From: a virus
Direction: 5' to 3' (one strand)
Length of the DNA: 64,000 nucleotides
IMG/VR virus record: IMGVR_UViG_3300025646_000015
Location: 37,269 to 101,268 of that record
Shown: positions 13,908 to 38,009 of the stretch, in pieces
Layout of the letters: every line of letters begins with the position of its first letter
How positions within the stretch are numbered: the stretch's first letter is position 1
Program-made: the position numbers and the translations under genes
The notes under the pieces: model-generated
What the model was told of the DNA's origin: nothing
The model's input: only the letters and a program-made list of their open reading frames with translations
Database searches by the model: none

Positions 13908-13985
13908 ACAATAATATTGAAGTGCTCAAAACGAGGCTTTGATGTAGACAAAATGTCGCATGCAACTAAAAAAAATATAAATACA

Positions 13986-14462
13986 ATGACAAAATTACAC
14001 ATAAGAAGCAATCTTCCTAGTGGAAACTTAATTACTAGAGAAGAATTTTTAACACCGTTTGATTCTATTTTCGATAGCATCATACAAAAAACAATACCTT
14101 CTTTTTCCGAAGAGTTTGGGATTAGTTTTTTTGGAAATAACAGCTACCCAAAAGTAGATGTAATCGATCACGAAGATAAAATAACGATTGAAGCAGAAAT
14201 CCCAGGGCTATCAAAAGAAGATGTATCTGTTGACTTAGAAGATAATATCTTGTCTATTACTGGATCAAAAAGAAGCCAGCAAGAAGATAGGGAAAAAAAA
14301 TACATCAGAAGAGAGCTTAAAAGATCAAGTTTTAAAAGATCATTTCAGCTTGGAGAAAATTTTAAAACAAAAAATATTAAAGCTGACTTTAAAGATGGTA
14401 TATTATTAGTAATAGTACCCAAAAAAGAGCCAGAAAAGCCTAAAAAAATAAAGATATTATAA
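13986..14462 (+). CDS. hsp20: small heat shock protein Hsp20/alpha-crystallin
   Basis: YPKVDV...EAEIPGLSKEDV...LSITG...RRE...SFKRSF.L...A.FKDGIL...PK; start moved to ATG 13986. Confidence 0.95.
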   Translation: MTKLHIRSNLPSGNLITREEFLTPFDSIFDSIIQKTIPSFSEEFGISFFGNNSYPKVDVIDHEDKITIEAEIPGLSKEDVSVDLEDNILSITGSKRSQQEDREKKYIRRELKRSSFKRSFQLGENFKTKNIKADFKDGILLVIVPKKEPEKPKKIKIL

Positions 14463-15263
14463 TCAAGCCCCTTCGGGGGCTTTTTTGTGCAAAGATAGCT
14501 TGTTGTAAATTTTTGCAAATTGAATCCTGCGATCATAAGTTGTTAAAGTATGTTCATCACTTGAGTCATGACAGAATTTGTGAGACAAGTGAACCAGCTT
14601 GCTTTCAAAAACTAAAGAGGGTATATGTATATTATAAGGCTCTTTAGGCAAATTTGGTTCTCCTACATAAGTATTATTAAATTTATAAAATATTCTATCA
14701 TCCAGTCCTTTTTTAAAAATAGCCATAAGAAAATCTTGATCTGTAAAAAATTTCCTGAAGCCATGAACTGGATCTTTTATTAGAGAAACTCGGTGACAAT
14801 GTTTGATAATATCTTCTTTGTTTTCAAAAAGATAATCTATGTAGGAAAAGAAATTGACTGCATTTCCAGACATAAAGCAAGGGCAGGCTCTATGAAACCA
14901 TGTTAAAGATGATGGATTTGATGTAATGTCAGAAGGAGAAAGAGAAATATTAAAAATATCACAATCAGAAAAAAGAGAAAAATCCTTGCAAAAATATGCA
15001 AAAGCTAAATGCTCCAAGTGTGTTGCCATGTGATAGCTATGTTCTTCTACTTTTTGTCCAGAAGCATGAAAGTGGATGTATTTCACAAAATCACAGTACT
15101 TTTTATAAAGAGGCTTGTCTTGAATCATGGCTTTATTTAAGATAATTGGTTCAAACCCTAAATTGCTCCAATTTTTTTGCCAAAGCTTTAAAAAAGACGT
15201 AGCCTTTTCAATATAATTTATGTTTTTGAAGTTAGTGAATTGGTGATATGTATAAATTTTCAT
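14463..15263 (-). CDS. putative GT-A glycosyltransferase (paralog of 5142..5924)
   Basis: WQKNWSNLGFEPIIL, SDCD, TDQDFL, HLSH. Confidence 0.5.
   Translation of the reverse strand: MKIYTYHQFTNFKNINYIEKATSFLKLWQKNWSNLGFEPIILNKAMIQDKPLYKKYCDFVKYIHFHASGQKVEEHSYHMATHLEHLAFAYFCKDFSLFSDCDIFNISLSPSDITSNPSSLTWFHRACPCFMSGNAVNFFSYIDYLFENKEDIIKHCHRVSLIKDPVHGFRKFFTDQDFLMAIFKKGLDDRIFYKFNNTYVGEPNLPKEPYNIHIPSLVFESKLVHLSHKFCHDSSDEHTLTTYDRRIQFAKIYNKLSLHKKAPEGA
14465..14486 (+). terminator. intrinsic terminator after hsp20
   Basis: AAGCCCC-TTCG-GGGGCTT hairpin followed by a T run. Confidence 0.9.
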
Positions 15264-15267
15264 AAAA

Positions 15268-15678
15268 TGGTGGAGGTGGCGGGAGTTGAACCCGCGTCCT
15301 GATCGCCTGCAACGATCACATCTACAAGTTTAGTTGATTTTTTTTATAGTTAAGATATCAACATCCAACTAGCCATTTCAATTATTTACAGTTTATGATA
15401 TGGATAAATTTTTATCTGTTTTGGCAGATTAGTGACCCCGCAATCTTAATATCTGCGTCAAAAGTTGCGAGGGGGCAGCTTTCAAGCTACCATCTCAAGC
15501 TCTTCAGCTTGCTCGAATTGTACGAGATTGTCGTACTCTTCACGAGCAGCTTCAAGAAGCTCTTCTATGCTATAATAACCTTCGGCATGTATAGCTTGTG
15601 TGTCTTGATATCGGAGCCTGACACATCTCCGACTTGCAGTGAAAGAATTCGAACGTCAGTCAAATCCAGAACACCCCC
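15268..15678 (-). ncRNA. ssrA: tmRNA (one-piece, 411 nt, encoded CCA)
   Basis: 5' GGGGGUG pairs with CACCUCC-ACCA giving G3.U70; T-arm GCGGG-TTCAACT-CCCGC; GGATTTGAC 5' motif; PK1 stems TCGGAG/CTCCGA and TGTGTC/GACACA; tag frame. Confidence 0.95.
15482..15586 (-). other. tmRNA tag reading frame (A)AEGYYSIEELLEAAREEYDNLVQFEQAEELEMVA*
   Basis: resume codon GCC after ATACAT just downstream of PK1; 34 codons to TGA. Confidence 0.8.
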
Positions 15679-15705: not shown

Positions 15706-15746
15706 TTACACTTTATTTATAGTAACAAAAGATAAAATAAAGTCAA
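15706..15746 (-). promoter_or_regulatory. tandem promoters of the tmRNA (sigma70-like plus phage GTGTAA motif)
   Basis: TTGACT at 15746-15741 with TACTAT 16 nt downstream; GTGTAA at 15711-15706. Confidence 0.6.
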
Positions 15747-36062: not shown

Positions 36063-38009
36063 TTATTTTGCGTTAAAGTTAGTTGATTTAGGTAAAACGG
36101 TAGTTTTTTCCTTTAAAGAAATTTGAGATTTATCGAAAATAGATGATCCTCCAACACTTCCAATTCTTGCATAGTCTGGAAGTTGTGTAGAAACATCTCT
36201 GGATTTCGCTAAAATTTTTGTTGAATTAATTGGAGGTAATAAACCCTGTACATCGTATGTAGAGTCTTCTAATTTTCTTGGATTTGTGTCAGGAATAGAA
36301 AATAAACTTGTATGTTTATATGGATTTGGAAGACCTTGATACCCTGGCTGTCTATGCGCTTTAAGATTGGTTCCAGTATGATTGTCTTTTATTCCGTTTA
36401 AAAGCTTATAAGGAGCTTGATAAAGCAAGGGGAATACAGATTCATCGATTTTTAAATGCTTTCTATTTTTAAAGTAAAAAAACTTATCATTAACATACTG
36501 ACCTGGTGTTCCGCCTAGTGGGAGAAATAATGGAGCAGATAAAGTGTCACTATAAGCTCTAAACTTTAAATTTTGTTTTTCTGTCAAAGTTAATCTATTT
36601 GCTTCTAGAAATGTTTTTGATTTAGAAAGTTTGAAAAAATCAGCATAAGTCACATCCCATTTGAAATTTAAAGATGCACGAGTAGCAACTGGATCAAAAA
36701 GAATATGATTTACTGGAAGATTATTGTAAGTTAGCTCTCGAGCTCCAAAGGCAACTGGAGAATGCAGGGAATAAGAAAAAAATAAAGGTTTTTCTATGTC
36801 AGAAGCAGCCATTCTATGATTTAAAATACTAGCGGCATCTCCTAGTCCTCGATTATTTTCATTAAACTGAATTTCATAATAAACTCCTTTTACTTTGGAC
36901 GCAACAACCTCAAAATCCCAACCAGCAGCAGGAACTATGTAAGCCAATTGAGGAAACGAATGATATTCAACAGGAGATCTAGCAAAACCTTCATGATCTA
37001 CTCCATTAGTGTTATAATCAAAAACCATATTAAGGTTAAATTCTTTAACTTGACCGTATTCAGCCAAGTCTGCAAAATAATTGGCAACGGATTCGTCTAA
37101 GGTGATAACAAATGCTCCTGTGTTGCTAGGTTGTATAGTAAGGGGGATAATAACATCTTGGGTATCAACCGTTCCATCTTTTCCATGAAAAAATATAGAA
37201 GTATAATCTTTAGCCATACCTGTTAATAAACCATTTTCATCTAGATCTCCATGAATCTGTTGAAGCCCAGTAGGCTCTATAAACGTGCGTAAATGAGGTG
37301 GTAGAGGCCTATCATCTCCAGGAATTACAACTTCAAAATCTTGAGAAACATGCTGTAGCGGATAATTTCTATTAACATTAAGATTATTTGGGTGTCTTAA
37401 ATTCCCAACTTCATATTCGTTTGGGGTGCTTGTGGTTTTGATAACAAAATCAGTTTCTATTCCTGCAAGCATATAGTATTGTTTGGAACAAATAGAAAGT
37501 TCTCTGTATTTTTTTTTGTCAGTATAATAACCTTTGTTTTCTAAAAGAGGATATCCACCACCTAAATGGTTTGGCATTTTATTGTGTTCATCCTGACGTT
37601 CTGATAAATCTACATAAATGCCTGTTGCAAAGTTTTGTGTGATTCCAGGTCTTCTATAAGATGTCTGGTCAAACCCGTTTTCATCTTCAAAACTAGTAAA
37701 ATTACCTGGAACTTGTAAATAATTAGATTTAGGTTGAAGTTTAAATGGAAATCCATTAAAATATCCATTTGAAGTAAAAGATTGAGCTGGATACGGAACT
37801 TCTTTGTAAGATGTAAAGTTTCCAAGAGTTAATTGGGGGACTGAATTTGAGCCTTGGAAAAGATATCTTTTTTGCCCAAATTCTGTAGTGGTTGTGGTTG
37901 CTGCTATACTATTTGTAAAACCAGGTGTAGAAACTTCCACAAATGGATTAACTTTATTGCTAGTGGGCGAAGATTTGAATGAAGAATCAGGCTTGCGAAT
38001 TGGTTTCAT
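36063..38009 (-). CDS. large hypothetical (probably virion) protein
   Basis: 648 aa; GTGTAA motif 9 nt upstream. Confidence 0.65.
   Translation of the reverse strand: MKPIRKPDSSFKSSPTSNKVNPFVEVSTPGFTNSIAATTTTTEFGQKRYLFQGSNSVPQLTLGNFTSYKEVPYPAQSFTSNGYFNGFPFKLQPKSNYLQVPGNFTSFEDENGFDQTSYRRPGITQNFATGIYVDLSERQDEHNKMPNHLGGGYPLLENKGYYTDKKKYRELSICSKQYYMLAGIETDFVIKTTSTPNEYEVGNLRHPNNLNVNRNYPLQHVSQDFEVVIPGDDRPLPPHLRTFIEPTGLQQIHGDLDENGLLTGMAKDYTSIFFHGKDGTVDTQDVIIPLTIQPSNTGAFVITLDESVANYFADLAEYGQVKEFNLNMVFDYNTNGVDHEGFARSPVEYHSFPQLAYIVPAAGWDFEVVASKVKGVYYEIQFNENNRGLGDAASILNHRMAASDIEKPLFFSYSLHSPVAFGARELTYNNLPVNHILFDPVATRASLNFKWDVTYADFFKLSKSKTFLEANRLTLTEKQNLKFRAYSDTLSAPLFLPLGGTPGQYVNDKFFYFKNRKHLKIDESVFPLLYQAPYKLLNGIKDNHTGTNLKAHRQPGYQGLPNPYKHTSLFSIPDTNPRKLEDSTYDVQGLLPPINSTKILAKSRDVSTQLPDYARIGSVGGSSIFDKSQISLKEKTTVLPKSTNFNAK

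Follow-up and report, generated by a model that had tools for sequence, protein, structure and literature searches.

The tags that tmRNA adds to stalled chains are usually seen as short degrons matched to the host. A tmRNA gene in an uncultured phage, encoding a tag of 34 residues in which a degron-like LEAA stands in the interior rather than at the end, raises the question of where such a tag starts, how it became so long, and what fate it confers on the chains that carry it. tmRNAs are found in ∼2.3% of phage genomes (PMC9004378), and have also been reported from huge phages (PMC7162821), from phage G and from phages of the Bxz1 group (PMC4131195). Phage tags that are both long and charged have a precedent in Bxz1.

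The stretch of DNA analysed here, which we call the window, covers 64,000 nucleotides (positions 37,269 to 101,268) of IMG/VR record IMGVR_UViG_3300025646_000015, a 101-kb virus record of ∼31% G+C that is estimated to be 74% complete. Its source is an uncultured marine-type phage. The record encodes replication genes (a DnaE-type polymerase, DnaB, a primase, an exonuclease and a UvsX-like recombinase), both ribonucleotide reductase subunits, a virion protein and a tail-fibre-like protein. A first-pass annotation had placed a tmRNA in this window and explained its long tag by read-through of a once-terminal LEAA.

A full-length, one-piece phage tmRNA

The placement of the tmRNA holds: ARAGORN and Rfam RF00023 both locate it at 15268–15678 on the minus strand (Table 1), the latter with 124.3 bits against a gathering score of 47 and over model positions 1–374. 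The acceptor stem has 7 bp (GGGGGUG/CACCUCC) with the G3-U pair of alanine identity, and is followed by ACCA; the T-arm GGGUUCAACUCCC and this 3' ACCA end were read from the sequence and aligned by Infernal. Pseudoknot 1 (PK1) lies just upstream of the resume region, and its stems covary among members of the phage tmRNA family described below. By blastn, no match to the tmRNA was found among 50,697 GenBank phage records. We also considered whether the RNA might be a decoy for SmpB of the DS6A type, consisting of the tRNA-like domain only; this is ruled out, the RNA being full length and its tag frame being under selection.

No terminator-like site was seen between the 3' end of the tmRNA and the open reading frame that follows it, and the tmRNA may be co-transcribed with this frame and then cut out by processing. 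A search of IMG/VR found no relatives of that frame. The sigma-70-like promoter candidate sits ∼40 nt upstream of the mature 5' end. On the other side of the tmRNA, 1.4 kb away and among glycan-modifying genes, lies the frame for a Bpt/ATE-like aminoacyl-tRNA protein transferase, which the NCBIfam arginyltransferase models match weakly.

Table 1. Features of the tmRNA locus and its surroundings, in window coordinates
Feature	Position	Strand	Basis or remark
Hsp20 gene	13917–14462		Neighbour of the tmRNA
Next open reading frame after the tmRNA	14463–15263	−	Start at 15263, 4 nt past the tmRNA CCA end
One-piece tmRNA gene, 411 nt	15268..15678	−	ARAGORN; Rfam RF00023 full length; sequence
Helix 5, GGUAGCU / AGCUGCC	15474..15491	−	Codes for the terminal V-A; stop in its loop
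Tag stop codon UGA	15482..15484	−	In the loop of helix 5
Tag reading frame, 34 codons, resume codon GCC	15485..15586	−	Translation; family frame analysis
Long hairpin within the tag frame, 25 pairs	15497..15562	−	Frame nt 25–90; folds
GCU called as resume codon by ARAGORN (tmRNA nt 132)	15545..15547	−	Tag codon 14
Conserved U-A-C-A-U before the resume codon	15587..15591	−	All family members
Pseudoknot 1, CGGAG...CUCCG + UGUGUC...GACACA	15599..15631	−	Infernal alignment
Sigma-70-like promoter candidate (TTGACT, 16 nt, TG-extended TACTAT)	15719..15746	−	Consensus scan only
ATE_C/Bpt-like transferase, 267 residues	17112–17915	−	Pfam ATE_C, 46 bits (cut-off 25)
ClpC-type double-AAA+ unfoldase, 820 residues	26432..28894	−	Pfam; structure matches; sequence

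The tag is read from an upstream GCC codon

The programs disagree on where translation resumes. ARAGORN chooses a GCU with A at −4, which would give a tag of 21 residues, and it makes this call both here and in two relatives. Infernal, on the contrary, puts the consensus resume codon on a GCC lying 12 nt past PK1 (PK1 ends at tmRNA nt 80, U-A-C-A-U occupies nt 88–92 and GCC is at nt 93), and translation from this codon (15586–15584) to UGA yields the 34-residue tag that the first-pass annotation had proposed. Read in this frame, LEAA forms tag codons 11–14 (15556–15545) and is followed by CGT as codon 15 (15544–15542), GAAGAGCTT occurs twice, and the tag ends in M-V-A, all as originally noted.

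Relatives of the tmRNA were gathered from IMG/VR, MAG contigs and metagenomes, giving a set of over 40 contigs, in each of which G(G/C)C immediately follows U-A-C/U-A/U-U at tmRNA nt 89–94. In all of them, too, the tag frame read from this upstream codon stays open as far as a stop in the helix 5 loop. Only the window tmRNA has GCC (Ala) as its resume codon; every other member uses GGC (Gly), a known resume codon (PMC1168896). In the U-A-C-A-U motif, positions −5 (U) and −4 (A) are the equivalents of U85 and A86 of E. coli, of which A86 is the main determinant of frame (PMC2481249). The frame also bears the mark of coding: among 13 distinct 34-codon and 5 distinct 40-codon sequences of the acidic clade, third codon positions make up 29 of the 42 variable tag sites (P = 2.4e-6), and all differences in tag length across the family (20, 21, 31, 34 and 40 codons) are multiples of three.

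These observations bear directly on the ARAGORN call. Coding constraint is seen in the codons upstream of its GCU, with 8 of the 13 variable sites in the first 14 tag codons falling at third positions (P = 0.035). The GCU lies 42 nt further from PK1 than the resume codon of any aligned tmRNA and falls inside a stem, and the program's starts are inconsistent across the family (nt 76, 90, 94, 130 and 163), some of them out of frame with the LALAA ending. Our conclusion from these sequence comparisons is that the 21-residue call is a mis-call; that it should be correct seems to us very improbable.

The problem is a general one. ARAGORN puts the resume codon at nt 76, 130–132 or 163 instead of nt 89–94 in the window and in L004, L005, L006, L014, L016–L018 and L020, and one of its calls uses another frame with a start inside PK1. 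Seven family members found by Rfam were missed by it. Because the resume codon is misplaced in much of the family, automated surveys of phage tags will return incorrect peptides.

A family of tags that differ in length and charge

The family is found on phage contigs, and the net charge of its tags ranges from +10 to −11. Tags of the first class have 20–21 residues, a net charge of +1 to +6 and the ending LALAA (in one case ALVA), while those of the second have 31 residues, a net charge of +10 and again end in LALAA. The third class, to which the window belongs, is acidic (net −9 to −11), with 34 or 40 residues and endings in EMVA, PMAA, PMAV or PMTV. A 2021 review gives 8–35 residues as the range of published tags (PMC8012679), and the 40-residue tag thus exceeds that range. 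Within the sister clade that carries it (L005, L030, L145, L147 and L154), the ending drifts from PMAA to PMAV and PMTV.

The 34-residue tag of the window has a net charge of −10. A single-sequence AlphaFold2 model predicts residues 7–33 to be helical (pLDDT 92), and the peptide is amphipathic, with a helical moment of 0.52 over residues 7–24. Its C-terminal end is non-polar. The tag had no usable match in the ESM Atlas, and blastp against all phage ORFs returned nothing significant.

Two members of the family, L007 (6810–7251) and L026, are mosaics. The backbone segments of L007 are 82–87% identical to L004 and 60–70% identical to the window, while in the mosaic tmRNAs PK1 and the tag frame are of the acidic type, 93–94% identical to the window and 34–67% to L004. 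It follows from these identities that a segment comprising PK1 and the tag has moved between backbones, and the alignments thus indicate recombination of a PK1–tag module.

The long tag grew from within

In the read-through proposal, LEAA was once the end of the tag and the following residues are an extension gained by loss of a stop. The family alignment contradicts it. The last six codons of the window tag, with the stop, align with K-L-A-L-A-A-stop of the 20–21-residue sister tags and form helix 5, and this helix aligns with UAGCAG/CUGCUA of the LALAA tags, the change from A to V being matched on the opposite arm by either a change or a wobble. Helix 5 is conserved across the family, with changes on both of its sides. 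The end of the long tag is therefore the counterpart of the end of the short ones, and LEAA (15545–15556), which varies to LQAA and LDAA, lies within the 5' arm of an internal hairpin. Moreover, codon 15 is not a stop in any of ∼25 acidic-clade members. We have accordingly rejected read-through of an old stop codon.

What lengthens the tag instead is the internal hairpin. Folding of the coding region is strong, as the first-pass annotation had noted (−41.4 kcal/mol, z = −3.45, with none of 200 shuffles as good). A second hairpin inside the tag frame is predicted in every family member, its base built on the self-complementary (A/G)AGCUU. RNAalifold recovers it from the nine short-tag members, with compensatory changes in five of its nine pairs, and its counterpart in the 31-, 34- and 40-codon forms is longer. 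Since EMVA-stop is aligned with LALAA-stop and LEAA falls in the hairpin arm, the extra length is an in-frame internal expansion. As judged from the alignment, then, the long tag arose by in-frame expansion of a hairpin in the tag frame.

This raises the possibility that the RNA came first, and that selection has acted mainly on the long hairpin, for RNA stability, nuclease protection, binding of a protein or pacing of tag translation, the acidic peptide being largely what a near-palindromic GAAGAGCUUC-type sequence encodes. The presence of the hairpin in all members and its covariation in the short-tag ones are consistent with such a history, and in the acidic clade (13 distinct sequences) 96.9% of hairpin pair cells are kept. 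Variable sites there are enriched at unpaired hairpin positions (7 of 16, compared with 9 of 50 paired ones), and the repeated EEL motifs lie on two complementary arms, GAAGAGCUU being found on both. However, the strong third-position bias and the uniformly in-frame indels point to a selected peptide, as do amino-acid changes of a conservative kind (E/D, E/Q, E/K, N/S and A/V). Several of the substitutions that break a hairpin pair in the acidic clade are synonymous, and the first seven codons are unpaired yet their peptide is conserved. We consider it distinctly unlikely that selection on the RNA is the main explanation of the tag. In these alignments the constraints on RNA and on peptide are both visible in the hairpin region, and they are confounded there.

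Long tags in relation to cellular tmRNAs

In a scan of genome collections, copies of the family appeared in MAGs only as separate contigs of four MAGs from different taxa, namely Cellvibrionales, Halobacteriovorax, 'Proteobacteria' and Coraliomargarita (L028–L031, of which L028, the Cellvibrionales one, is a 210-kb contig). Three of these MAGs carry, at another place, a canonical tmRNA with a tag of 9–11 residues. The family contigs therefore have the appearance of phage sequences caught up in the binning, and are probably contaminants of the MAG bins. In eleven tmRNAs from the Verrucomicrobiota phylum, the tags have 9–10 residues apart from one of 19. The expectation that cellular tags would be much shorter is thus borne out over the eleven sampled Verrucomicrobiota and the chromosomal tmRNAs of the MAGs, in which they span 9–19 residues. 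Given these lengths and the confinement of the family to separate contigs, the long tags look like a phage trait, not copied from any sampled host.

A BLAST search of the tmRNA against 401 genomes of the Verrucomicrobiota phylum matched only the universal 3' end. By eye, the PK1 region resembles that of the Coraliomargarita tmRNA, a likeness that is insufficient to name the host.

Partners and the fate of tagged chains

Neither the record nor 22 related ones, four of which are at least 90% complete, yielded an SmpB, and ClpP was not found in these phages, including five relatives (4 at least 90% complete). The phage does encode a ClpC-type unfoldase. Its Pfam matches are Clp_N, AAA, AAA_lid_9, AAA_2 and ClpB_D2-small, with a short M-domain and two AAA+ modules, and its best solved relatives are the ClpC proteins of S. 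aureus and B. subtilis (6em8, 3j3s), which it matches end to end in one stretch, whereas ClpB structures are matched in two. The D2 module carries a VGF loop, in what we take to be the position of the ClpP-docking loop, and [VIL]GF is kept in all 11 orthologues extracted (L182–L191 among them). The gene is present in 14 of 22 relatives, in all four of the near-complete ones and with every tag class; from this distribution we regard it as a core gene of the phage lineage. The ATPase presumably uses host ClpP.

A further phage protein bears on how the end of the tag may be read. This protein of 208 residues, encoded outside the window (L175:470–1096, minus strand; G000:C1:18269–18895), ends in ...N-D-L-M-V-A, so that its last three residues are those of the tag. 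Homologues in five relatives, ∼45% identical, end in L-L-V-A, L-L-I-A or A-L-V-A, while the residues before the ending diverge. The protein matched no family in Pfam or PHROGs. With an ssrA-like C-terminus that is conserved, the protein may be a built-in protease substrate, and because endings of the L-M-V-A type are kept on it, they look like a signal used in this system; the comparison suggests as much.

Our preferred reading, which we hold to be probable, is that the locus encodes a functional phage tmRNA whose hairpin-expanded tag retains a C-terminal degron, the acidic body being an exchangeable, lineage-specific module. The RNA would need the host's alanyl-tRNA synthetase, SmpB and EF-Tu. 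It would enter stalled ribosomes, where translation would resume at GCC, and an alanine followed by the 34-residue, helix-prone peptide would be appended to the stalled chain. The C-terminal end of the tag (...L-E-M-V-A), as the positional homologue of ...L-A-L-A-A, would most likely still be a degron for a Clp-type protease, for which host ClpXP and the phage ClpC-type ATPase, docked on host ClpP, are both candidates. As for the amphipathic acidic body, it could be a site for an adaptor; alternatively it could serve as a solubilising or assembly-blocking tail, or be in part a side effect of selection on the RNA hairpin.

We favour a retained degron because MVA is non-polar and aligns with LAA, because ssrA tags that end in LVA are degraded in E. 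coli, their half-life being ∼13 min as against ∼8 min for LAA (PMC3511798), and because of the endings of the 208-residue proteins. Other features argue against our reading. In the acidic clade the ending drifts from the canonical AA (EMVA, PMAA, PMAV and PMTV), and the modelled helix, were it to run as far as residue 33, would make a poor extended degron. The ClpC-type gene, moreover, occurs irrespective of tag class, and its N-domain is not complementary in charge to the tag.

There is another way to read these features, close to what the first-pass annotation had in mind: the acidic helix may mask or replace the host degron, such that rescued chains escape host ClpXP and are kept, sequestered or given to the phage ClpC-type unfoldase. 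The tag is strongly acidic and three times as long as the cellular tags sampled, and endings in the clade move from AA to VA, AV and TV. The tmRNA, Hsp20, the ATE_C/Bpt-like transferase and the ClpC-type ATPase are all encoded within 15 kb, the tmRNA and the ClpC-type gene are found together across the lineage, and sister tags of opposite charge, together with the exchange of tag modules, suggest selection on the tag body itself. Nevertheless, the ClpC-type gene accompanies every class of tag, those ending in LALAA included, and the charges of the ClpC-type domains, including the N-domain, show no complementary pattern with those of the tags over 11 orthologues, so that electrostatic reading of the tag body by this ATPase is without support. 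A non-polar ending has been kept, of a kind that works in E. coli as LVA (PMC3511798), and no adaptor gene was identified near the tmRNA. Re-routing of this sort therefore strikes us as rather unlikely.

Going further than either reading, phage tags might be exchangeable effector cassettes, generated by hairpin growth and recombination, that set a fate chosen by the phage for rescued chains and are not plain host degrons. We are doubtful of this and put it forward as speculation. Were it true, tagged chains could be delivered to the phage ClpC-type ATPase on host ClpP; alternatively, tagging could keep truncated structural proteins out of assembly or help to evade a host response.

Comparison with known tmRNA systems

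The window tmRNA shares much with the canonical one-piece tmRNAs of E. coli and B. subtilis (RF00023). Common to both are a tRNA-like domain with G3-U and CCA, PK1 followed by U-A at −5/−4 and a resume codon near nt 90, a stop in the loop of helix 5, downstream pseudoknots and a non-polar C-terminal end, as well as a Gly or Ala resume codon as in tags of the Firmicutes type. Unlike them, it is phage-borne, SmpB not having been found in the phage, and its tag has 34 residues (40 in sisters) with a net charge of −10, ends in MVA rather than AA, and has an extra long hairpin inside its frame.

Long tags also exist in cells, where those of Mollicutes and Chlamydiae reach 20–30 residues, the tags of mollicutes being regarded as targets of Lon rather than of ClpXP. 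These differ from the window tag in belonging to the cell's only tmRNA and in not being strongly acidic helices, and they have no sequence relation to it. The 19-residue tag from the Verrucomicrobiota phylum is likewise unrelated to it.

The closest parallel in kind is the tmRNA of Bxz1 and the cluster C mycobacteriophages, which is also phage-encoded, with a long acidic tag and a non-canonical ending (PMC4131195; tmRNA Website). ARAGORN gives the Bxz1 tag 25 acidic residues, ending in A-A-L-V. The likeness is in kind only, since blastn detects no DNA similarity between the Bxz1 and window tmRNAs and the phage lineage and host are different. To our knowledge, neither a hairpin-expansion series nor tag-module exchange has been described for the Bxz1 group. 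More broadly, the hairpin-expansion series, the alignment of EMVA with LALAA, the exchange of tag modules and the systematic ARAGORN mis-calls appear to be undescribed.

Where tags are usually regarded as short and matched to the host, this family on phage contigs fixes the RNA machinery, while its peptide ranges in length from 20 to 40 residues and in charge from strongly basic to strongly acidic. The mechanism is visible in the alignments: the hairpin expands and modules are exchanged. Should something read the charged body of the tag, these phages would reprogram the fate of stalled-ribosome products during infection.

The two-piece tmRNAs of Melnitz and the pelagimyophages are, like the one described here, carried by marine phages of low G+C (PMC9004378), and have been proposed to sustain translation or to tag proteins for recycling (PMC9004378). 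In contrast to the one-piece window tmRNA, which belongs to a separate family, they are circularly permuted, of alphaproteobacterial type and linked to a glutamine riboswitch. As a separate observation on structured RNAs in this phage group, a related phage contig carries a match to the Rfam manA RNA motif (76.7 bits; L002:2003–2203, minus strand), ∼9 kb from its tmRNA.
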